From: a virus
Taxonomy: Duplodnaviria; Heunggongvirae; Uroviricota; Caudoviricetes
Reading direction: 5' to 3' (one strand)
DNA: 64,000 bases
IMG/VR virus record: IMGVR_UViG_3300013126_000009
Shown: positions 7,956 to 43,816 of the stretch, piece by piece
How positions within the stretch are numbered: position 1 is the first letter of the stretch
How the letters are laid out: the number at the start of each line of letters is the position of its first letter
The notes under the pieces: generated by a model
The model's database searches: none
Told to the model about the DNA's origin: nothing
Seen by the model: the letters and a program-made list of their open reading frames with translations, nothing else
Position numbers and translations under genes: made by a program

Positions 7956-8030
7956 GAAGGTGTGGGTGAGTTGGAATTAGCCACATGACTGCAAATCATG
8001 TTTACGTCAGTTCGAATCTGACCATCTTCT
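7956..8030 (+). tRNA. tRNA-Cys (GCA)
   Basis: Acceptor GAAGGTG/CATCTTC; anticodon arm CATGA-CTGCAAA-TCATG; T-arm GTCAG-TTCGAAT-CTGAC; enlarged, imperfect D-arm. Confidence 0.6.
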
Positions 8031-8037
8031 CAAGTAA

Positions 8038-8109
8038 GCCCCAGTGGTGTAATGGTTAGCGCTCCGTTTTTACATGGCGGGAGAACTGGTTCGATTCCAG
8101 TCTGGGGTA
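8038..8109 (+). tRNA. tRNA-Val (UAC)
   Basis: Acceptor GCCCCAG/CTGGGGT; anticodon arm CCGTT-TTTACAT-GGCGG; T-arm CTGG-TTCGATT-CCAG. Confidence 0.6.
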
Positions 8110-8118
8110 CAAAAAAAT

Positions 8119-8196
8119 GCGGGTATGCGGAAAGTTTGGTGAAGCCGAGCAGTCTTAGGAACTGCTGATTTGGGGGTTCGACTCCCTCTACCCGTA
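8119..8196 (+). tRNA. tRNA-Leu (UAG), atypical short variable arm
   Basis: Acceptor GCGGGTA/TACCCGT, A73; anticodon arm GCAGT-CTTAGGA-ACTGC; T-arm GGGGG-TTCGACT-CCCTC; 3-bp D-stem with 14-nt loop. Confidence 0.5.
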
Positions 8197-8221
8197 CAGA
8201 TAATGAGTTAATAAATTAATT

Positions 8222-8461
8222 ATGCGTGAAATTAAAAAAGTTGCATGGGATAAGTTCATTGAAACAATGGATTATGATTCTGACGTAAACAACTTCAAGT
8301 ATGACTTCAAATACATGACCAAAAACCATGGTAATGCCTTTATAGAATACTGTAAAAGTATGTGGGAAGCGAACGAAGGTATTCAAACAGAAGAAGAGTT
8401 TATGACGATGAACGCTAATATGCCAAAAGGCTTTTTTGATAAGGTAGTTAAGGGGAAGTGA
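8222..8461 (+). CDS. hypothetical protein located between tRNAs
   Basis: 79-aa ORF; its stop overlaps the start of the next tRNA. Confidence 0.35.
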   Translation: MREIKKVAWDKFIETMDYDSDVNNFKYDFKYMTKNHGNAFIEYCKSMWEANEGIQTEEEFMTMNANMPKGFFDKVVKGK

Positions 8462-8529
8462 TGGAAAGCTGGTGAAGCCTCTTTGACTTAAAATCAAAGG
8501 ATATACGGGTTCGACTCCCGTCTTCCCTA
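8452..8529 (+). tRNA. tRNA-Leu (UAA), atypical
   Basis: Acceptor GGGGAAG/CTTCCCT, A73; anticodon arm CTTTGA-CTTAAAA-TCAAAG; T-arm ACGGG-TTCGACT-CCCGT; D region homologous to the 8119 and 8541 tRNAs. Confidence 0.5.
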
Positions 8530-8540
8530 CTAAAAATTTG

Positions 8541-8617
8541 GGCGAGTGATGGAAAGCTGGTGAAGCCTCTTTACCTCAAAAGTAAAGGATATACGGGTTC
8601 GATTCCCGTCTTGCCCA
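8541..8617 (+). tRNA. tRNA-Leu (CAA), atypical
   Basis: Acceptor GGGCGAG/CTTGCCC, A73; anticodon arm CTTTAC-CTCAAAA-GTAAAG; T-arm ACGGG-TTCGATT-CCCGT. Confidence 0.5.
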
Positions 8618-8677
8618 CATTAATTAAATTTTAGTACATTTGTAGAATTACTAAACTATTTATTATAAAGTTCGCAA

Positions 8678-11480: not shown

Positions 11481-11553
11481 GTGGTGGTTACCAAGTTGGT
11501 CAAGGTGTCGCTCTGAAAAAGCGATAATGTTGGTTCGATTCCAACCCATCACA
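11481..11553 (+). tRNA. tRNA-Phe (GAA)
   Basis: Acceptor GTGGTGG/CCATCAC; anticodon arm TCGCT-CTGAAAA-AGCGA; T-arm GTTGG-TTCGATT-CCAAC. Confidence 0.65.
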
Positions 11554-11559
11554 CAAAAC

Positions 11560-11632
11560 GGTCCGTTCGACAAGTGGTTTAAGTCACCGCTCTTTCACAG
11601 CGGAGTCATGGGTTCAAATCCCATACGGACTA
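11560..11632 (+). tRNA. tRNA-Glu (UUC)
   Basis: Acceptor GGTCCGT/ACGGACT; anticodon arm CCGCT-CTTTCAC-AGCGG; T-arm ATGGG-TTCAAAT-CCCAT. Confidence 0.65.
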
Positions 11633-11686
11633 CTGAAAATATAGAGTTTTAAAGCCTTTTGACAATCTGGAAAGACGGATATTAAC

Positions 11687-11759
11687 GGACGCGAGGTGTT
11701 GTTGGTAACATACGGCCCTGTCACGGCTGAGATTGCGGGTTCAACCCCCGTGGCGTCCG
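11687..11759 (+). tRNA. tRNA-Asp (GUC)
   Basis: Acceptor GGACGCG/GGCGTCC (one mismatch); anticodon arm CGGCC-CTGTCAC-GGCTG; T-arm GCGGG-TTCAACC-CCCGT. Confidence 0.55.
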
Positions 11760-11784
11760 CCTAGACATATTTTTGGCACTTATT

Positions 11785-11857
11785 GTGGTGTTAGTTAAGC
11801 TGGCTATAATACTGCCCTTGCAAGGCGGAGTCATCGGTTCGAGGCCGATACGCTACA
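11785..11857 (+). tRNA. tRNA-Ala (UGC)
   Basis: Acceptor GTGGTGT/ACGCTAC including a G3:U70 pair (Ala identity element); anticodon arm CTGCC-CTTGCAA-GGCGG; T-arm ATCGG-TTCGAGG-CCGAT. Confidence 0.6.
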
Positions 11858-11876
11858 CTTTAAAATATTTATTATT

Positions 11877-16199: not shown

Positions 16200-16688
16200 A
16201 TATGAAAAATAATCACTATATTTGTATCATCGTTCTTTGACAATATTATAAAGGTAGGCCGATAGCAGTTTAATGGCGAGGCAGCATCGTCCACATTTCA
16301 GGTTGCCACCATGCAACTGGTGCTGAGTGTGTAGGCCACCTATTTAGAATTATGGTTGTTTGGTACAAGTTAAGTTGAAATTGCTTTTATGAAAACTAAA
16401 AATTTCACCGAGGCCATCAACCGTAACATATTTTGACTCATCCAATTGGTTTTATAATATTAAAATTCATCTGTTTCAGCAGACAGTACTTTCAGTTATG
16501 AAGTTCCGAAAAGAGATGGTCTGGAGCTGCCATCAAAGTATAGCCCGACACCAAAGGGCGTTGTCTGTTTGAAAGTGTGGTTACCATTAACTCAAAATGG
16601 CATCTGGTACACCTAGTAATATGATTACTGTGAAAGGGATTCAGATTAACTGCATCCTCCTGTGGTGGGAGGCAGATGATAATTTCAT
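16200..16688 (+). ncRNA. candidate structured non-coding RNA (relatively GC-rich, ORF-free, hairpin-rich)
   Basis: Follows the promoter TATATTTGTATC at 16218. Local hairpins CCACC-ATGCAACT-GGTG, CTGT-TTCAGCAG-ACAG, CCTCC-TGTGGTG-GGAGG. No ORF of 60 aa or more on the plus strand. Confidence 0.35.
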
Positions 16689-16818
16689 AGTCAGGTGGCG
16701 GAATTGGTAGACGCTAAAAAAGATAATGGTGTAGATTACACAAGATTGAGGAATTAAGTTTCCAAAGGTATCGGGAAAATATAACTACACTGTACAGGTT
16801 CGAATCCTGTCCTGACTA
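16689..16818 (+). ncRNA. tRNA-like element A (130 nt; tRNA acceptor/D/T framework with long internal insertion)
   Basis: AGTCAGG-TG-GCGGAATTGGTAGACGC ... ACAGG-TTCGAAT-CCTGT-CCTGACT-A, perfect 7-bp acceptor pairing, about 78 nt between D-arm and T-arm. Confidence 0.5.
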
Positions 16819-16951
16819 CAATTCAATTGACGTTAAAACCATATACAATGGGAGTCACCGATGTGTCTAAGTTAGAGGTACACTAACACAAATCACATTG
16901 ACAACAGTTATCGGAGAGGAAATGGAAACCCTCATTGAATTTTTTAAACGG

Positions 16952-17075
16952 TCAGTCGGTGTATTGGCGAAACACAGATTGGTAACAAGTGTCGGTAATC
17001 AAGACGGGTGAGTAACGCGTAATAAGCCCTGAGAGAAAAACACACCTCATCTTATAAAGGTTCGAATCCTTTACT
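16952..17075 (+). ncRNA. tRNA-like element C (~124 nt) with long internal insertion; coordinates approximate (+/-2)
   Basis: GGTCAGT-CG-GTGT-ATTGGCGAA-ACAC ... AAAGG-TTCGAAT-CCTTT-ACTGACC-A; acceptor complement perfect. Confidence 0.45.
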
Positions 17076-17280
17076 GACCACAAGCCGTTTTTTAGTCCTC
17101 GTCCTATGAGACTATTGTTTAACGAGATGAAACAAATGTTGTATAAAGGGGTTTAGGTAAGTTTTCCAGAAAACTGTGGTCCTTTTCCTTACCGAAGGAG
17201 TTTTCAGACCTAAACTCAAAACTCAAACGACAGTAAAGAAGTAGGGACAAACGGGAGCGGCTTACTCCCGTCCCGAATAT

Positions 17281-17383
17281 AGTCAGGTGGCGGAATTGGT
17301 AGACGCATAATACCCTACATTGTGGGTAAAAGAATAAGGTCATTAGATGATACTTCATATAGGTTCGAATCCTGTCCTGACTA
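17281..17383 (+). ncRNA. tRNA-like element B (103 nt); ends identical to element A, interior different
   Basis: First 26 nt identical to element A, last ~24 nt near-identical. Interior has an anticodon-like arm ATAAT-ACCCTAC-ATTGT (CCU) and a 35-nt extra arm. Confidence 0.5.
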
Positions 17384-17387
17384 CGAG

Positions 17388-20285: not shown

Positions 20286-20360
20286 ACGGGAGGTTATGCA
20301 GATGGCTATACAACGGTACCTTGGACGTATCGGTTCGTGGGTTCGAATCCCACTCTCCCG
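20286..20360 (+). tRNA. tRNA-Pro (UGG)
   Basis: Acceptor CGGGAGG/TCTCCCG; anticodon arm GGTAC-CTTGGAC-GTATC; T-arm GTGGG-TTCGAAT-CCCAC; odd D region. Confidence 0.5.
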
Positions 20361-20398
20361 ACATTAATCCCGACAAATTGTCGGGATAATAATTAAAT

Positions 20399-20471
20399 TG
20401 CCCTGTGGTGTAATTGGGAACACGTCTGTTTTTGAAGCAGAAGAGTCTAGGTTCGAGACCTAGCGGGGCAA
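20399..20471 (+). tRNA. tRNA-Gln (UUG)
   Basis: Acceptor TGCCCTG/CGGGGCA; D-arm GTGT-AATTGGGA-ACAC; anticodon arm TCTGT-TTTTGAA-GCAGA; T-arm CTAGG-TTCGAGA-CCTAG. Confidence 0.65.
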
Positions 20472-20547
20472 CTTGACTTTAGAGATAAAGCGTGATGTCA
20501 TATTATAGATAACGCACAGGCTCTAATTATAAAAATAATACAAAATA

Positions 20548-20620
20548 GGGGAATCGCCCAGGGTTGGTCGGACGCTCTGTAAAAGCGAACCGCAATATAG
20601 TTCGAGTCTATTGTTCCCCA
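20548..20620 (+). tRNA. tRNA with anticodon GUA (Tyr?), type-I-like
   Basis: Acceptor GGGGAAT/GTTCCCC; anticodon arm (A)CGCT-CTGTAAA-AGCG(A); T-arm TATAG-TTCGAGT-CTATT; imperfect D-arm. Confidence 0.45.
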
Positions 20621-20628
20621 CAATTAAT

Positions 20629-20700
20629 GCACCCATAGTTTAGTTGGGAAAACGGTAGATTTGTAATCTTCAGTCCTCAGTTCAAGCCTGAGTGGGTGCT
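20629..20700 (+). tRNA. tRNA-Thr (UGU)
   Basis: Acceptor GCACCCA/TGGGTGC perfect; D-arm GTTT-AGTTGGGA-AAAC; anticodon arm GTAGA-TTTGTAA-TCTTC (one mismatch); T-arm CTCAG-TTCAAGC-CTGAG. Confidence 0.65.
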
Positions 20701-20715
20701 CAGTTGATTTTTTTT

Positions 20716-20789
20716 GCCGCATAGGTGTTACGGCAGCACATCTGACTTCCAATCAGAAGGCGAGAGTTCGACTCTCTCATGCGGCTCCA
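20716..20789 (+). tRNA. tRNA-Gly (UCC), CCA encoded
   Basis: Acceptor GCCGCAT/ATGCGGC perfect; anticodon arm TCTGA-CTTCCAA-TCAGA; T-arm GAGAG-TTCGACT-CTCTC; 3' T-CCA present. Confidence 0.7.
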
Positions 20790-20797
20790 TTTTAAAT

Positions 20798-20872
20798 TCC
20801 CTCATAGGTTCAATTGGTTTAGACTACTTAACTTTTAATTAAGGGGTGCTGGTTCGAGTCCAGCTGGGGGAA
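20798..20872 (+). tRNA. tRNA-Lys (UUU)
   Basis: Acceptor TCCCTCA/TGGGGGA; anticodon arm CTTAA-CTTTTAA-TTAAG; T-arm GCTGG-TTCGAGT-CCAGC. Confidence 0.65.
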
Positions 20873-20914
20873 CAAAAATTTGTTTATTAATAAAATAATT
20901 TATATATTTGCTCT

Positions 20915-39057: not shown

Positions 39058-40104
39058 ATGATGACTGAAAAAGTTTATAAATTCCCTTCAATTGAACAGC
39101 TCAGAACTGTAATTAAGGAGGTTAATCATCGTATTAGATTTAGAGGTACAACTGAGAGTGGTGAACCAATATATGATGAGACTGAAGGCATTCTACCAAC
39201 GTTAAAATTTCGTGGCAGTATCAAATTACATGGTACGAATGCGTCAATAATTCGATTGAAAAATGAGCATGGTAACATCAAAACTCAAGTTCAATCCAGA
39301 ACAAATATAATAACGCCATTAAAAGATAATGCTGGGTTTGCTACATTTGTTACAACCATCGATGTTAATAAAATATTCGATTTAATTAAACGGAACGGTA
39401 GCGTTTCTGATTATAAGATTATTCAAGTCTATGGTGAATGGTGTGGCGGTAATATTCAAAAAGGTGTTGCCCTGAACGAGCTTGAAAAAATGTTTGTTAT
39501 TTTTGCGATTAAGATTGATGGTTTATGGATGAAAGACTCTGAATTAAAAAATATTAAAATTCCTGAGCAAAAGATATATAACATTTTAGATTACCCAACT
39601 TTCGTTATTGACATTGATTTTAATAATGTTAGTGAATCGGCTGAACTGATTTCTGACTACGTTGATAGTGTTGAGAATGAATGCCCAGTTGGTAAATCTT
39701 TTGGGGTATCTGGTACTGGTGAGGGTTTGGTATTTGTTTGTGTTACTGAAGGTTGGGGTGATTCTAGGTTTTGGTTTAAATCTAAAGGTGAGAAACACCA
39801 AAGCAGTAAGACCAAAACCAAAGTACCAATTGACATTGAACGAGTTAGCAATATAGATTCACTGGTTGATAATTTTTTGACTGAATCAAGGTTAAATCAA
39901 GGGCTTGATTATCTTAGGGAAAACCATATGGATATATCACGAAAGAGTACTGGTAATTATCTTCGTTGGATATTTGAAGATGTTGTTAAAGAAGAACTTG
40001 ATACAATAACTGGCAACGGTTTTGAACCAAAGGACATTAGTTCAGCATTATCAACCAAAGCCAGATTGTGGTTTTTTGAAAAAACGGATAATGTTTTTTT
40101 GTAA
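39058..40104 (+). CDS. RNA ligase, Rnl2-like
   Basis: Motif I KLHGTN (compare T4 Rnl2 KIHGTN) and VYGEWCGGNIQKGV (compare VFGEFAGPGIQKNV). Confidence 0.7.
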   Translation: MMTEKVYKFPSIEQLRTVIKEVNHRIRFRGTTESGEPIYDETEGILPTLKFRGSIKLHGTNASIIRLKNEHGNIKTQVQSRTNIITPLKDNAGFATFVTTIDVNKIFDLIKRNGSVSDYKIIQVYGEWCGGNIQKGVALNELEKMFVIFAIKIDGLWMKDSELKNIKIPEQKIYNILDYPTFVIDIDFNNVSESAELISDYVDSVENECPVGKSFGVSGTGEGLVFVCVTEGWGDSRFWFKSKGEKHQSSKTKTKVPIDIERVSNIDSLVDNFLTESRLNQGLDYLRENHMDISRKSTGNYLRWIFEDVVKEELDTITGNGFEPKDISSALSTKARLWFFEKTDNVFL

Positions 40105-40452
40105 TTAAAAAAGCGACAGTTTTAAAATTAGAAGTGTAGAAACTGTTGTTGATGGAGTGAAAAATGATAACGGAGTAAAATTTACGGTGAAAACTCAAAA
40201 TAGTACTGTAGAGTTTGAAATTAGTGATAAACAAGCAGAGTTGTTAGCGAAGTGGTTAAATTGTCGCTAACGGTTGCAAATATGGGAAGTAAATTTTTTA
40301 TTTCAAAATTTATTTCTTATATTTGTTGTTATAAATTAGTTAAAATAAAAAGATATGAGAGCATTTACCTAACCAAATACGTATAATAGAAAGACAAGGA
40401 AATTACATATACACCTTGTTATAAGTAGTTACAAACAATTAAAAAATTCATT

Positions 40453-40632
40453 ATGGAAACTTATTTTGAAACAAATGGAAAGAAAGGTGTTGTTCAAATT
40501 GGAGCGCACGTATTAAATGTATTATATTATTTCACAGAAGATGACACAATTTATTGTAAAGTTGTTGGTGGGGATAACGACTTTAATGATGGGTATGAAT
40601 TTTTTACACATTACAAATCATTACTCGTGTAA
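40453..40632 (+). CDS. hypothetical small protein (59 aa, below track cutoff)
   Basis: METYFETNGKKGVVQIG...; ATG 40453 to TAA 40630-40632. Confidence 0.25.
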   Translation: METYFETNGKKGVVQIGAHVLNVLYYFTEDDTIYCKVVGGDNDFNDGYEFFTHYKSLLV

Positions 40633-40677
40633 TTACTTATAATATTTGTTATAAAACGTTTCATAAATTAAAATAAT

Positions 40678-40950
40678 ATGAGTAAAAAAAAAGAAAGAGT
40701 AAAACAAAGATGGGATTTACTCCAAACCGAAATTAATAATTTAATTGATTCGATTATTTTTGAGTCATTTACAGAATGGAAAGATATTATTGAAAGTGAA
40801 ATCATACGAATCATTAAGAAATATAATGTCCTATCTTGGTATGGTAGAGAATGGAAGGTAATTACATCAATACATCCAATTTATAACGAATATACTTTTG
40901 ATGTTAGAACAATTAAGGGACATTGGAGGGTTATGAAAATTGTTAAATGA
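40678..40950 (+). CDS. hypothetical protein
   Basis: 90-aa ORF. Confidence 0.35.
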   Translation: MSKKKERVKQRWDLLQTEINNLIDSIIFESFTEWKDIIESEIIRIIKKYNVLSWYGREWKVITSIHPIYNEYTFDVRTIKGHWRVMKIVK

Positions 40951-40969
40951 AATGTTTTATAACGGTTGA

Positions 40970-41000
40970 GTGTAAAAAATCGTTTTAATGTTTTTTACAC
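40970..41000. repeat. L-module hairpin, copy 1 (copy 2 at 41736-41770)
   Basis: GTGTAAAAAA-TCGTTTTAATG-TTTTTTACAC inverted repeat. Confidence 0.6.
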
Positions 41001-41003
41001 TTT

Positions 41004-41017
41004 GTTATAAGTATGTG
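41004..41017 (+). repeat. bracket repeat L1 (GTTATAAGTATGTG)
   Basis: Inverted partner at 41424-41436 (CATTACTTATAAC). Confidence 0.6.
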
Positions 41018-41042
41018 TTTAAATTTTTATACCTTATAAAAA

Positions 41043-41405
41043 ATGATTAATATGATAAATAGAACTACAAAAAGATTGTTGAGTGCATCTCGACTTGGAG
41101 TTAACTTTGATTACGGTGATGGTCATCGTTGGATTAATTTTTACGAAGATGAAGTTACTGATAACGAAACAATGTATCAAAAACTTCAACGAAACAATAT
41201 TCATCCTAATACAAAAGTTTATGGGAATATTATTGACTGCTTAAACTTTGTTGATTTCCTATTGAAAAAAATGAATGAACCAACATTAGAAGAAAGGTTT
41301 GATGGATTTAATGATTGGGGATTTGATGATGAATTTGTAGGGAATCATACACCTTGGGAAGATAGTGGAAGTGAAACGGATGAATATTTTGAGGAACGAA
41401 TATAA
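41043..41405 (+). CDS. hypothetical acidic protein (bracketed cassette 1)
   Basis: 120-aa ORF lying between bracket repeats L1 and R1. Confidence 0.35.
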   Translation: MINMINRTTKRLLSASRLGVNFDYGDGHRWINFYEDEVTDNETMYQKLQRNNIHPNTKVYGNIIDCLNFVDFLLKKMNEPTLEERFDGFNDWGFDDEFVGNHTPWEDSGSETDEYFEERI

Positions 41406-41423
41406 AATTCATAAAAATTTAAA

Positions 41424-41436
41424 CATTACTTATAAC
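41424..41436 (-). repeat. bracket repeat R1
   Basis: Reverse complement GTTATAAGTAATG matches L1. Confidence 0.6.
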
Positions 41437-41506
41437 GTTTTCGGGCTTTGCGTTCGGCAGGGCTTAGAAGCACTAAACTTGATTTGAAAAACTAAAATTT
41501 CATAAT

Positions 41507-41710
41507 ATGACAAAAGTAAATTTAAACAACCAAACCCCTGCTGATGCAAAGCCCGTGTTAGCAGATAGTAAAATTGCCGTTGGTGATAAAGTAAGAATTG
41601 ATAAAGGAACTAAGCCTATCTTAACAGTACAGCACATTATTGGTAAGGTAGTTTGGTTTGAAGAAACGAATGATAATTGCTTCCTTGATGAGTGTACAAA
41701 GGTTGGGTAG
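41507..41710 (+). CDS. hypothetical protein (between brackets)
   Basis: 67-aa ORF. Confidence 0.3.
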   Translation: MTKVNLNNQTPADAKPVLADSKIAVGDKVRIDKGTKPILTVQHIIGKVVWFEETNDNCFLDECTKVG

Positions 41711-41735
41711 GCAATTTTATTTCTGCTAACGTTTT

Positions 41736-41770
41736 GTGTATAAAAAATCGTTTTAATGTTTTTTATACGC
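41736..41770. repeat. L-module hairpin, copy 2
   Basis: GTGTATAAAAAA-TCGTTTTAATG-TTTTTTATAC(GC). Confidence 0.6.
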
Positions 41771-41771
41771 T

Positions 41772-41785
41772 GTTATAAGTATGTA
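41772..41785 (+). repeat. bracket repeat L2 (GTTATAAGTATGTA)
   Basis: Inverted partner at 41997-42010. Confidence 0.6.
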
Positions 41786-41818
41786 AAATAAAAATTATAC
41801 AAATTAAAAAATAAAAAT

Positions 41819-41989
41819 ATGGACGAAGAACAAAAAAAATCGGAAGAAATGTTTATACTGATGAAAATTGGTAAAATGACAATAACTGAAATAAATACAT
41901 TGACAGATAAGGAAAGATTTTTTTTATCTAAATGGTTTAAAGAAAGTTTAGAAACAGAACAACGCATTATGAAAGAAAGATATAGATAA
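41819..41989 (+). CDS. hypothetical small protein (56 aa; bracketed cassette 2)
   Basis: MDEEQKKSEEMFILMKIGKMTITEINTLTDKERFFLSKWFKESLETEQRIMKERYR; preferred over the minus-strand ORF 41773..41967. Confidence 0.3.
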   Translation: MDEEQKKSEEMFILMKIGKMTITEINTLTDKERFFLSKWFKESLETEQRIMKERYR

Positions 41990-41996
41990 TTTTTAT

Positions 41997-42010
41997 TTTA
42001 TTACTTATAA
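41997..42010 (-). repeat. bracket repeat R2
   Basis: Reverse complement GTTATAAGTAATAA. Confidence 0.6.
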
Positions 42011-42126
42011 CGTTATTTGGCTTTACGTAGGTGGGGCTAAATAGCACAAAACTTTCAACCTGCACAAAAGATTATTAAAAGCACGTAAGCTGGGTTTAAA
42101 CGCTAACCCCCACTTGCGTAAAACCA

Positions 42127-42351
42127 ATGTTAGCACCAGTTTTTATTATGGAAAATCAACCAGTTCAAGAAAAAGTAAAAGTAGGCACAGAATCGCTAAA
42201 ATCATTAGCCATCTATCTTTCGGGATTAAAAGATGGTAAAGGTAATTTGTTACCATTAGGCACTATTGTTTTAGAAGACCTTTGGAATGCTATCAGTTAT
42301 TTAGATGGTGATGTACGGTTCACGGCTAAACGTGATGATAAGGTTCGCTAA
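42127..42351 (+). CDS. hypothetical protein (between brackets)
   Basis: 74-aa ORF. Confidence 0.35.
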   Translation: MLAPVFIMENQPVQEKVKVGTESLKSLAIYLSGLKDGKGNLLPLGTIVLEDLWNAISYLDGDVRFTAKRDDKVR

Positions 42352-42481
42352 AATTGGTGCTAACGTTAAATGTATGAAATGTAGGCGGATAGGAACTACT
42401 GCCTTATCAACCTACACAAAATTAAATAGAAAGTAGAAAAGTATAAACCTGCACTAAAACAGCCTATATTTTATACATATT

Positions 42482-42496
42482 GTTAGGCGTATGTGC
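42482..42496 (+). repeat. bracket repeat L3 (GTTAGGCGTATGTGC)
   Basis: Inverted partner at 42691-42703; its core differs from L1/L2 but complementarity is preserved. Confidence 0.6.
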
Positions 42497-42690
42497 TTTT
42501 AAATCAAAAAAATATGATACAAATTAGATGGTATGAAAGATTAACAATTAGTGTAATACTTTGCTCTGTGGCATTTTTAGTATGGCACTTCGGGTTCAAA
42601 ACAAATGATTGGATTAGTTTTTCAATCGGTTCATTTGGTTGGCAACTAATTGACCAAATAGTTTACACGATTAGATTCAGGCGTTTGTAG
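42493..42690 (+). CDS. hypothetical small membrane protein (bracketed cassette 3)
   Basis: 65 aa, two hydrophobic segments. Confidence 0.35.
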   Translation: MLLNQKNMIQIRWYERLTISVILCSVAFLVWHFGFKTNDWISFSIGSFGWQLIDQIVYTIRFRRL

Positions 42691-42703
42691 CATTACGCCT
42701 AAC
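42691..42703 (-). repeat. bracket repeat R3 (CATTACGCCTAAC)
   Basis: Reverse complement GTTAGGCGTAATG. Confidence 0.6.
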
Positions 42704-42752
42704 TAGTATATATATGTAATAATTTATAATCAATTAATTATCAATAAGTTAT

Positions 42753-43352
42753 ATGGCTAAAAACCAAAAAATTATAAAGATTTGCACTGAAAAGTTTATA
42801 TTTTTGAATTACTCGAAAAGAACTAGTGATATATATCTATGCTATATCAAGCAATTTTTAGATAGTTTAAACGATATACAAATAATCCATTGTAATTCAA
42901 AACATTTCCAATATTTCATTGATAATTATAAATTCACGTCTATATCACAACAAAACCAAGTTATCAACGCAATCAGGTTCTTATATAAGTACGGTTTGAA
43001 CAAAAAATATGATAAAGTAAGTTTCAAACGTCCTAAAAAAGAAAAGAAACTACCTCGTGTTATTGACGGTGATGTTCTAAAACAAAAAATTGAAACAATC
43101 ACAAATATTAAACATAGAACAATCCTCACATTAGCATATTCAGTAGGTTCTTGTCAAAGAATATTTAAAAAATATATTGATAATGATAAGTCATTCCATA
43201 GCCTGAGACATTCATGTTTTACTAATTTGTTGGAGAACGGAACAAACCTTCGGACAATTCAAGTGATAGCAGGGCACTCATCATCAAAAACTACAGAAAT
43301 ATACACACACATTTCAAAAAAAGCGTTAGAAAACGTTGTATTACCTATTTAA
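42753..43352 (+). CDS. compact tyrosine recombinase (phage-integrase family), possibly truncated
   Basis: N-terminal SAM-like core-binding region; C-terminal HSLRHSCFTNLLENGTNLRTIQVIAGHSSSKTTEIYTHI (H-x-x-R ... H ... Y catalytic motif). Only 199 aa; the segment between box I and box II is missing. Confidence 0.6.
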   Translation: MAKNQKIIKICTEKFIFLNYSKRTSDIYLCYIKQFLDSLNDIQIIHCNSKHFQYFIDNYKFTSISQQNQVINAIRFLYKYGLNKKYDKVSFKRPKKEKKLPRVIDGDVLKQKIETITNIKHRTILTLAYSVGSCQRIFKKYIDNDKSFHSLRHSCFTNLLENGTNLRTIQVIAGHSSSKTTEIYTHISKKALENVVLPI

Positions 43353-43369
43353 TTTTGTATATTTGCATT

Positions 43370-43816
43370 ATGATAGAAGCCAATGATAATATAATCATAT
43401 CCTTTAAAAATAGGTCAATAGATATCGATAAGCCAATTAAAGTTTATCGAAACCTACATAAAAAAGGTAAATGGTACTCAATTAAACAAGATAATCTGGT
43501 CGTTGCTCACGCACAAAGATTATGTTTGTCAAAACCTAGATTTTTAATTAACCAATCTGGTAAAAAGAGAGCCATCAAAGAACAACAAAGAAATGTTCAC
43601 GCCTTTATTGTTGGCTACTTGAGAAAATCTGGTATGGGTACAACGGCAATTGATAAACTACCAGCAAAAATTGAATATGACCCATTTAATAAACATGGTT
43701 TTTTTTGTGATAATTTAACAATTAATAGGTTGGAAGTCTTATCGGCAGAATTCTGTGTTATAAATGAAAATGGCGTAAGTGCCGCATATTTAGGAGAAAC
43801 AAAAATATTAAAGTAA
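43370..43816 (+). CDS. hypothetical protein
   Basis: ORF; start moved to the ATG after the TATATTTGCATT box. Confidence 0.4.
   Translation: MIEANDNIIISFKNRSIDIDKPIKVYRNLHKKGKWYSIKQDNLVVAHAQRLCLSKPRFLINQSGKKRAIKEQQRNVHAFIVGYLRKSGMGTTAIDKLPAKIEYDPFNKHGFFCDNLTINRLEVLSAEFCVINENGVSAAYLGETKILK

Follow-up and report, generated by a model that had tools for sequence, protein, structure and literature searches.

The question raised by the locus described here is why small open reading frames (ORFs) in a viral genome should each be enclosed by a pair of covarying inverted repeats beside a gene for a compact tyrosine recombinase. The locus lies in a 64,000-nucleotide stretch of DNA (hereafter the window) from a virus of the Caudoviricetes, IMG/VR record IMGVR_UViG_3300013126_000009. 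An earlier note, made from the sequence alone, had described three such pairs and offered three explanations: (a) an integron-like or shufflon-like cassette system served by the adjacent recombinase, (b) RNA stems, and (c) a promoter sequence and its complement. Following comparison with other viral and bacterial loci, the region is read here as a phage-borne, integron-like array of mobile gene cassettes beside a compact Xer-like recombinase, and we place the probability of this reading at roughly 0.7.

Analysis of the window identified seven consecutive small ORFs (40418–42703), each bracketed by GTTA-N5…N5'-TAAC, with a T before the GTTA and a G after the TAAC. The cores of each bracket are complementary and specific to their cassette, and hairpin spacers separate one cassette from the next (Table 1). 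Eight GTTA…TAAC pairs of at least 10 bp were observed where 1.06 were expected (maximum of 4 in 100 mononucleotide shuffles), all of them inside a 2.4-kb region (40328–42703) with none elsewhere in the window. The three pairs of the earlier note were recovered in place (41004/41436, 41772/42011 and 42482/42703). Its motif with the spacing GTTA-NNNN-GTATGT finds none of these sites, however, while GTTA-NNN-GTATGT matches exactly these three, belonging to cassettes c1, c2 and c3, and no other in 64 kb. The cores do change in a complementary manner as had been reported, but at three covarying positions (TAA in c1 and c2, GGC in c3) rather than four. The repeats are also longer than had been described. 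Those of c1 and c2 have an outer stem of 10 bp, which is followed by a conserved asymmetric interruption (left TG, right T) and then by 15 bp of perfect cassette-specific pairing, and that of c3 has the same outer stem and interruption followed by 4 bp of pairing. Two ORFs thought to sit between the brackets (41507..41710 and 42127..42351) were found to possess brackets of their own (41557/41730 and 42129/42364). A 31-bp hairpin noted before the left repeat was confirmed, with the loop TCGTTTTAATG and two copies in the window (40968–41002 and 41736–41770) and nowhere else there. The "GC-richer module" noted after the right repeat is present, but it is the 5' arm of a hairpin spacer of ~117 nt that has its 3' arm immediately ahead of the next GTTA.

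The third explanation, that of a promoter and its complement, found no support, given that the motif is confined to the array and that a scan for sigma-70 promoters and intrinsic terminators, whose reach does not extend to Bacteroidota promoter types, gave no enrichment there. By eye on a sequence logo, the region upstream of GTTA did not fit the TAnnTTTG spacing. With Rfam, only tRNAs reached the gathering threshold in the window, and nothing meaningful was obtained at E<=5 in 39900–43500.

Eighty viral loci (given here with L numbers) were fetched through homologues of the recombinase. They share little DNA with the window beyond the recombinase gene and short intergenic modules, and the same grammar was present upstream of the recombinase homologue in ~70 of these 80 unrelated contigs. 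The 272 kb upstream of the recombinase contained 319 brackets (1.17 per kb), against 17 in the 368 kb downstream (0.05 per kb), an enrichment of ~23-fold. The 282 distinct brackets have many different cores, each enclosing a small co-oriented ORF as GTTA-N5/6…N5/6'-TAAC. The two cores of one cassette agree at 5–6 of 6 positions, whereas neighbours across a spacer agree at ~2.2 of 6, which is the chance level. Exact pairing between the left and right ends stops sharply at 9–10 bp, and at position 11, which is rarely Watson–Crick, a conserved G on the left stands opposite a T on the right in 192 of the 282 brackets. The two ends are therefore distinguishable and directional. The covarying pair most plausibly makes up a single site, one half at each end of its cassette, and not two sites that recombine with each other.

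These findings bear directly on the shufflon-like part of explanation (a), in which the inverted-repeat pair would itself serve as the recombination sites and the recombinase would flip the ORFs on or off. Matched-core inverted repeats beside a tyrosine recombinase do have, formally, the geometry for this. However, with a G and a T at position 11 to tell left from right, 0 of the 282 distinct brackets were in the flipped configuration. In the inspected maps of recombinase-linked arrays the ORFs were co-oriented, with no orientation call around their hairpins being antisense, and the rearrangements observed between loci were translocations and replacements, not inversions. Invertible segments are thus largely refuted and scarcely credible as an explanation. 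It is the integron-like part of explanation (a) that was supported, by the upstream enrichment, by cassette boundaries at TAAC and by the translocation of a cassette between near-identical phages, with the qualification that the recombinase adjacent to the array in the window is almost certainly inactive.

The spacers between cassettes fall into three discrete size classes of ~40, ~80 and ~117 nt, all of which follow the pattern TAAC-G(G/T)TT-stem-loop-stem'-T-GTTA with stems of 12–21 bp. In the 12-bp hairpin, compensatory double changes were found in 11 of the 12 pairs and 91.9% of cells were paired, a level reached by 0 of 500 shuffles, and no variation was seen in one T·A pair or in the 11-nt loop. 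Wobble pairs in the stems are strongly asymmetric (206 G·T against 24 A·C), which identifies the strand carrying TCGTTTTAATG as the folding strand. Crossover within the hairpin loop was considered as a general mechanism and rejected; the arms are almost always perfectly matched and diverse, indicating that the hairpins are inherited whole. A single hybrid hairpin (L047 3468–3498), with a 5' arm like the window's first hairpin type and a 3' arm like its second, would fit an occasional crossover within that conserved loop. Searching the literature for the loop sequence gave unrelated primer matches only. "Empty" brackets of the form GTTAn5-TCGTTTTAATG-n5TAAC were also seen, immediately before the recombinase leader in L020 (4917–4945), L018, L021 and L043, and several hundred nt upstream of the recombinase start in L012, L042 and L063; they may be platform sites, minimal cassettes or regulators. 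The leader-proximal bracket of the window holds cassette c3, and the leader that follows TAAC in L020 resembles that of the window.

Comparison of related loci shows where the cassettes begin and end. Between L005 and L039, homology starts right after the preceding TAAC and stops at the cassette's own TAAC, with both flanks unrelated; the shared cassette has conserved spacer stems and a diverged spacer loop. Cassette boundaries lie likewise at TAAC between L009 and L034. Three loci (L049, L050 and L053) are 100% identical from the TAAC followed by TATCATATAT through the recombinase gene and show no relationship directly upstream, and in L046 and L047 identity again begins exactly where TAAC meets the leader, with unrelated sequence upstream. 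The clearest case is a lineage formed by L009, L033 and L034, which are 97–99.6% identical over the 3.8–6.7 kb that start at the recombinase gene; in addition, 1.8 kb of array is shared at 100% by L009 and L033. In this lineage a 960-bp TAAC…TAAC unit is second in the array of L009 and stands directly beside the recombinase leader in L033 and L034. Breakpoints at TAAC and the translocation of this unit between genomes that are 97–100% identical elsewhere provide comparative evidence that the cassettes are discrete mobile units. The earlier note had looked to homologous phages for changes of cassette order or orientation; the order does differ, as this unit demonstrates, but no inverted orientation was found.

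Nearly every locus has a conserved leader (TAnnATATAT…) adjoining the last TAAC, 40–55 nt before the start codon of the recombinase, the junction in the window being GCCTAAC followed by TAGTATATATATG. The leader begins right after the last TAAC, and it is there that cassette replacement and arrival were seen. This junction is the likely insertion site and a candidate counterpart of attI, in an orientation unlike that of integrons, the recombinase being co-oriented and downstream.

Close relatives of the window were sought for presence/absence variants, and only L003 was found, sharing just the c1 ORF without brackets. The homologue in L003 (86% nucleotide identity; L003 3985–4388 against window 41029–41434) is an ordinary unbracketed gene. 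The inner right arm of c1 in the window is partly homologous to the native 3' flank of the L003 gene, and the complementary inner left arm is not. The left arm thus looks as if made to match, a possible clue to the genesis of cassettes. A homologue of the cB ORF is found in L045 in a cassette with other cores and another spacer.

An alternative account of such shuffling is provided by the promoter early stem-loop (PeSL) elements of T4-type phages, promoter–terminator composites whose exchange is driven by homology, with no dedicated recombinase (PMC2839356, PMC4122927). Under this explanation the array would consist of regulatory cassettes in which a repeated terminator/promoter module is shuffled by ordinary homologous recombination. 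There is an established precedent in those same studies, and the resemblance extends to small accessory ORFs in a hyperplastic phage region, a repeated stem-loop motif, and gain, loss and shuffling among close relatives. Near-identical repeated hairpins do lie just upstream of small ORFs here, and the L047 hybrid hairpin resembles a crossover within a repeat. The phage arrays differ in their covarying cassette ends and positionally linked tyrosine recombinase, and in their breakpoints at a 4-nt core, which argue against homology-driven exchange. The breakpoints at TAAC share only 4–5 bases and include junctions that have no hairpin, such as the leader and the long unique spacers. Homologous shuffling would also leave unexplained the cassette-specific complementarity across each ORF, the invariant loop within freely covarying stems and the fixed place beside the recombinase gene, and no promoter or terminator enrichment was found among the sigma-70 types scanned. 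We consider this explanation decidedly unlikely.

The recombinase of the window is itself a damaged copy. Its 199 aa match the SAM-like domain at the N-terminus, but of the catalytic-domain profile they cover no more than the last ~48 positions, and alignment with seven full-length relatives (~267 aa) revealed that 67 residues are missing in frame. The earlier note was correct that HxxR…H…Y is kept and a central segment lacking; the missing residues include the Arg-I box (LRVSE) and the Lys of the KGRKDR β-hairpin. With this Arg and Lys deleted, the protein is very probably inactive, as judged from its sequence. The full-length relatives scored best among NCBIfam models against XerA (171–186 bits), followed by IntI (155–161) and XerC/D (~140–160), all below the curated cut-offs. 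Their match to the integron integrase model TIGR02249 (155–161 bits against a cut-off of 265) is split into two stretches, with the middle part of the profile passed over, and against VchIntIA (2a3v) 35 query residues stand opposite 83 IntI residues, the segment with the IntI-specific insertion being missing. The comparison with IntI and Xer families that the earlier note had called for accordingly places these relatives, by their sequences, among Xer-like enzymes and outside the IntI clade. At E<=1e-20 the family has no fewer than 7,961 clusters, of which almost all are metagenomic, and no close homologue was found in isolated phages, the best match there having 39% identity. Four independent contigs were observed to have the recombinase gene broken at one place, which follows residue ~132 (LxYSVG): by the in-frame deletion at 43149–43151 in the window, by a frameshift in L014 (~5410), and in L042 (~4280) and L044 (~5369), where only the N-terminal part is present. 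This shared break point suggests a fragile or targeted spot.

The window array itself is probably decaying or frozen, and could be moved, if at all, only in trans. It is best seen as a fossil, or as relying on a recombinase provided in trans, because its own recombinase is very probably dead, one right end reads TAAT, one spacer is missing and remnants occupy 40274–40417.

From the site grammar a mechanism can be proposed for intact systems. The mobile unit would be [G-spacer hairpin-T-GTTA-N5-(A)GT … ORF … AT(T)-N5'-TAAC], with TAAC on both sides, and the Xer-like recombinase would exchange strands at or within TAAC on folded single-stranded sites. A cassette excised as a circle would have its right end, spacer hairpin and left end contiguous, and the TCGTTTTAATG strand of this junction may then form a single hairpin, long and imperfect. 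Such a hairpin would be attC-like, with GTTA/TAAC as an "R box", an unpaired spacer of 4 nt on one side and 1 nt on the other, a variable stem of 12–21 bp with the invariant T·A pair, and a loop. If the joined ends of the circle form one hairpin, the two 5–6 nt cores of a cassette must match. Re-insertion would take place at the leader junction, in a manner analogous to attI, and resolution would be replicative by analogy with integrons.

Several features are shared with integrons. In both there are arrays of mostly single-ORF, promoterless-looking cassettes beside a tyrosine recombinase, strand-specific folding and clusters without a recombinase. The layout of the sites is alike as well: imperfect hairpins in which conserved GTT…/…AAC boxes lie outermost, with an unpaired spacer, a stem that varies and a loop. 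On circularisation, the beginning of a cassette would pair with the start of the site that it carries, and insertion is apparently at a platform site. The earlier note had drawn attention to the attC core, and GTTAGGC of c3 does fit GTTRRRY, but most cores (such as GTTATAA and GTTAGCA) do not fit RRRY. There are further differences. The phage recombinase is Xer-like, 267 aa long, below the IntI cut-off and without the IntI-specific insertion, and it is downstream of and co-oriented with the cassettes instead of divergent. The phage hairpin travels 5' of its ORF, and the folding strand is the sense strand. Compared with attC, the loop TCGTTTTAATG is invariant and stems are 10–27 bp, with extrahelical bases not identified.

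One module of this kind has in fact been published. Qi et al. (2023) reported a cluster of attC sites lacking an integron integrase (CALIN) in Polaribacter phage P12002L, which was taken as a stray bacterial integron site (PMC9892861). In that work HattCI called one module (P12002L_attC1) as attC, while the covariance-model step did not (PMC9892861). The P12002L_attC1 oligonucleotide corresponds to a type-1 module, TGCTAAC-GGCT-stem-TCGTTTTAATG-stem'-T-GTTAGGC, located between methyltransferase cassettes. The published account includes neither a dedicated recombinase nor bracket covariation nor a family of such sites (PMC9892861), and the P12002L "CALIN" can now be re-read as belonging to a system that is native to phages and has a recombinase of its own.

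In bacteria, the hairpin module is abundant in genome assemblies of Bacteroidota, among them those of cultured isolates and complete chromosomes. In genome contigs ~40% of the hairpins run antisense to the genes beside them, compared with none in recombinase-linked phage arrays. Chromosomal cassettes carry immunity- or defence-type genes (Tdi1/GAD-like, SIR2, WGR-LRR-TPR), and immunity-type cargo was found only there. Bacterial loci with both the hairpin and a recombinase homologue have mostly the layout of rAID-1 (clusters of acquired interbacterial defence associated with a recombinase), with a 5' recombinase of 347–375 aa. In most of them co-oriented genes follow the recombinase. The same brackets occur, with their polarity reversed relative to the genes. 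A contig of a Crocinitomicaceae metagenome-assembled genome (MAG) carries the hairpin and GTTR…YAAC brackets. The chromosomes of Algoriphagus isolates have both GTTG…CAAC and GTTA…TAAC brackets with reversed polarity marks, which yields the general grammar GTTR-N5…N5'-YAAC; the TCGTTTTAATG loop was not found in the Algoriphagus arrays, which have the brackets only. The phage enzyme is 38–42% identical, over its full length, to the array-linked recombinases of the Crocinitomicaceae MAG and Algoriphagus, the bacterial enzymes having an extra N-terminal domain of ~90 aa. Group II intron reverse-transcriptase genes or fragments were observed inside the Algoriphagus arrays (L204 13693–14913; L206 12473–12799, 14943–15233 and 19708–20499), in parallel to the group IIC-attC introns of integrons.

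The rAID-1 clusters of Bacteroidales were described by Ross et al. as having a XerD-family recombinase and intergenic repeats "reminiscent of integrons" (bioRxiv 10.1101/471110), and a follow-up of 2025 still calls the mechanism of rAID biogenesis an open question and treats the structure of the sites likewise (PMC12247911). No structural description of the rAID-1 repeats was found in the literature searched. By description, the phage arrays share with rAID-1 the Bacteroidota host range and repetitive, conserved intergenic motifs. In contrast, the rAID recombinase is larger and lies at the 5' end, while every viral locus, the window included, has it at the 3' end; rAID sites are antisense to the cargo, while phage sites are sense. 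Cargo differs also, rAID genes being immunity or defence genes of 100–300 codons and phage genes being ORFans, DNA methyltransferases and ADP-ribosyltransferases. Since the recombinase is not IntI, and layout, polarity, enzyme size and cargo are unlike those of rAID-1, the system is regarded as a phage-borne variant of recombinase-associated cassette arrays. Our best reading is of a relative of the rAID-like arrays of Bacteroidota chromosomes, with a compact 267-aa recombinase and opposite polarity. A more specific proposal is that phages of Bacteroidota, and by way of the related rAID-type arrays their hosts too, possess an integron analogue of their own, which would have evolved from a Xer-like recombinase rather than from IntI. 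A private 5–6 nt end-pairing "address" and the hairpin with its invariant loop would make up a folded single-stranded DNA site, and capture would be beside the recombinase gene; the odds on this proposal appear somewhat better than even.

Another group of gene-carrying modules served by Xer-type recombinases is formed by the pdif modules of Acinetobacter plasmids, in which genes are flanked by inverted XerC/XerD sites. The pdif sites are 28-bp, duplex, dif-like sequences shared by neighbouring modules and served by the host XerCD. Each phage cassette instead has an end pair with a private core, and there are hairpin spacers as well as a recombinase dedicated to the system. Neither the present grammar nor a phage version of it was found described in the literature, coverage of which was incomplete.

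The antisense arrangement in bacteria bears on explanation (b) of the earlier note. In its fullest form, the array would be transcribed as one early polycistronic RNA, in which the long-range stems between left and right ends would make each cistron a closed domain and, with the hairpins, would act as elements of processing, stability or translation control, for example as RNase III sites, and the recombinase would be incidental. The stems that bracket rRNAs are a precedent for such RNase III sites. Long-range stems prevail in the predicted RNA folds (z-scores of -5.1 and -4.5), and the wobbles on the sense strand (206 against 24) are G·U-compatible. Left–right pairing often continues for 14–20 bp past the conserved core, 51 of 293 brackets having 14 or more additional pairs, compared with 13 in the control. 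In recombinase-linked phage arrays every site is sense, and the loops of 117-nt spacers contain start codons. However, the ~40% of bacterial hairpins and the rAID-type brackets that are antisense to genes are hard to reconcile with an obligatory sense-RNA function. A plain RNA helix has no need of the invariant GTTA/TAAC, of a non-Watson–Crick position 11 or of one invariant stem pair, and an RNA function accounts neither for termini that are breakpoints of DNA rearrangement nor for a fixed position relative to the recombinase gene. There was also no match to an Rfam family. RNA stems may have an added effect in phages, but as the general function of the brackets they appear unlikely.

The linkage between hairpin and recombinase was examined from the opposite direction with 120 viral loci fetched by the hairpin module alone, of which 54 were evaluable (at least 4 kb of downstream sequence). 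A recombinase homologue was present in 12 of the 54, and was co-oriented and downstream in all 12. Many cassettes without a nearby recombinase would be expected of IS200/IS605-like single-strand mini-elements, which insert 3' of a tetranucleotide, have a subterminal hairpin and are moved by an enzyme acting in trans, the neighbouring recombinase being unrelated. The units bounded by TAAC and starting with a hairpin, as well as the strand-specific folding, would suit such elements. On the other hand, no HUH/Y1 transposase was seen among the proteins examined, which were a part of those in the window. The constant placement of the tyrosine recombinase in the 12 unbiased cases and the conserved leader junction point to that enzyme, and the cassettes of the window are clustered in an array, not dispersed. 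This possibility is considered very unlikely.

A number of observations weigh against an integron-like array and should be set beside the evidence in its favour. No recombinase was nearby in 42 of the 54 phage loci selected by the hairpin, only 6 of 120 bacterial contigs had one, and a recombinase so rarely near the cassettes means that action in cis is not the rule. (Among integrons, CALINs are comparable, in that most cassette-bearing phage loci are likewise without a recombinase in cis.) The recombinase of the window is, to judge by its deletion, defective. In the only experimental test of such a module, P12002L_attC1 was the sole site of six without verified attI1 x attC recombination by IntI1, which is for this site a foreign integrase (PMC9892861). 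Where the context is antisense, the G·T excess comes from few cases (12 against 4) and is only suggestive. Some of the cassette shuffling could be due to homologous recombination between near-identical hairpins. Lastly, the always-sense phage sites, and left–right pairing that often extends beyond a plausible protein-binding site, also fit a role in RNA.

The cargo of the phage brackets consists of 258 distinct proteins (median 85 aa), usually one ORF per bracket and with almost no redundancy. About 90% of it is without a Pfam family. The remainder includes five DNA methyltransferases of three classes, two ADP-ribosyltransferase-like proteins, exonucleases and a PAPS-reductase-like protein. 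None of the seven cassette ORFs of the window gave a family match. The phage cargo likely represents genes for counter-defence and host takeover. A cassette pool shared between phages and their hosts is also suggested.

Integrons are the model of modular gene capture and are tied to IntI, mostly in Proteobacteria. The present grammar, with its TAAC units, covarying ends, three spacer classes, invariant loop and pair, leader junction and folding strand, gives testable substrates for the question of how rAID genes are acquired, and it extends the system to phages, where methyltransferases, ADP-ribosyltransferases and hundreds of ORFans are carried. The system is widespread and probably serves the phages of Bacteroidota and their hosts in swapping accessory genes. 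If the proposal of an integron analogue native to these phages and hosts is true, it would represent a major unrecognised route for the exchange of accessory genes (counter-defence and immunity) between phages and bacteria, given thousands of metagenomic recombinase variants and cassettes dispersed over phage and bacterial genomes. Pairs of bracketed and unbracketed gene copies, such as c1 of the window and its counterpart in L003, may make the genesis of cassettes, a long-standing problem for integrons, approachable.

Table 1. Features of the cassette array and recombinase gene of the window (L, left repeat; R, right repeat).
Feature	Position	Strand	Description
Left array edge, mini-hairpin	40254..40273	+	GTTAGCGA-13 nt-TCGCTAAC; first TAAC followed by G; overlaps end of ORF 40157..40270; GTTA/TAAC grammar as in other brackets
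Spacer hairpin	40274..40327	+	22-bp stem with G·T wobbles; frame TAAC-GGTT-stem…stem'-T-GTTA; fold -19.8 kcal/mol
Degenerate remnant	40328..40417	+	L-like GTTATAAATT; no ORF; no complementary R within a plausible cassette
Cassette c0	40418..40643	+	L GTTATAAGTAGT; ORF 40453..40632 (59 aa); R ATTACTTATAAT, terminal C mutated to T (TAAT)
Cassette c0b	40648..40963	+	L GTTATAAAAC; ORF 40678..40950 (90 aa); R GTTTTATAAC; 10-bp exact pair and 10 further pairs
Type-1 spacer hairpin	40964..41003	+	GGTT-GAGTGTAAAAAA-TCGTTTTAATG-TTTTTTACACTT-T; fold and family covariation
Cassette c1	41004..41436	+	L 41004–41030; ORF 41043..41405 (120 aa); R 41411–41436
Long spacer hairpin, ~117-nt class	41437..41556	+	Arms ~41442–41463/~41534–41555; loop holds ATG 41507; -37.9 kcal/mol
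Cassette cA	41557..41730	+	L GTTAGCAGA inside or at start of ORF 41507 (or GTG 41555)..41710; R TCTGCTAAC; 17 further pairs
Type-1 spacer hairpin	41731..41771	+	GTTTT-GTGTATAAAAAA-TCGTTTTAATG-TTTTTTATACGC-T; 89% match in Polaribacter phage P12002L
Cassette c2	41772..42011	+	L 41772–41798; ORF 41819..41989 (56 aa); R 41986–42011; 16 further pairs
Long spacer hairpin	42012..42128	+	GGCTTTACGTAGGTGGGG … CCCCCACTTGCGTAAAACC; fold -36.4 kcal/mol
Cassette cB	42129..42364	+	L GTTAGCACCA overlaps start codon ATG 42127; ORF 42127..42351 (74 aa); R TGGTGCTAAC
Long spacer hairpin	42365..42481	+	ATGTATGAAATGTAGGC … GCCTATATTTTATACAT, G·T wobbles; fold -27.9 kcal/mol
Cassette c3, recombinase-proximal	42482..42703	+	L GTTAGGCGTA; ORF 42493/42514..42690; R TACGCCTAAC
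Recombinase leader	42704..42752	+	First base follows TAAC (TAGTATATATATG…); candidate region for an attI-like junction and for the recombinase promoter
Xer-like tyrosine recombinase gene	42753..43352	+	In-frame 67-residue deletion; presumed inactive

Some details of the array may be added. The right end of c0 is separated from the next left end by 4 nt only, its spacer having been lost. The region 40258–40354 is conserved at 75–95% in ~10 other loci, and a copy of 40959–41016 identical at 58 of 58 positions occurs in L005, though the recombinase on that contig is only ~50% identical. A 26-nt inverted repeat (42413–42438/43336–43361; 81% complementary, 14 nt exact) flanks c3 and the recombinase gene, and may be due to chance in AT-rich DNA.

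Among neighbouring genes, one for an RNA ligase (PF09414, phrog_548; 39058–40104) ends ~150 nt before the left edge of the array, with a 37-aa ORF between; no functional link of this gene to the array was found. The gene after the recombinase (43355–43816) encodes a protein similar to gp82 of mycobacteriophage L5 (PF25735, phrog_586). As the DNA past the recombinase stop codon varies between lineages, this gene is not considered part of the system.

Elsewhere in the window there are 14 tRNA genes in three clusters (7956–8618, 11481–11858 and 20287–20873), all on the + strand, which points to a large phage genome; the related contig L003 is 125 kb. A further Rfam tRNA match (17281–17383; 103 nt, 37.4 bits), not called by ARAGORN, is possibly a tRNA with an insertion or intron, and the region 16682–17384 has short matches of 93–100% in viral locus L039. 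Two short segments (57760–57797 and 58113–58145) match several repeated sites in L079 and L080 at 93–100% and represent a dispersed repeat unrelated to the array.

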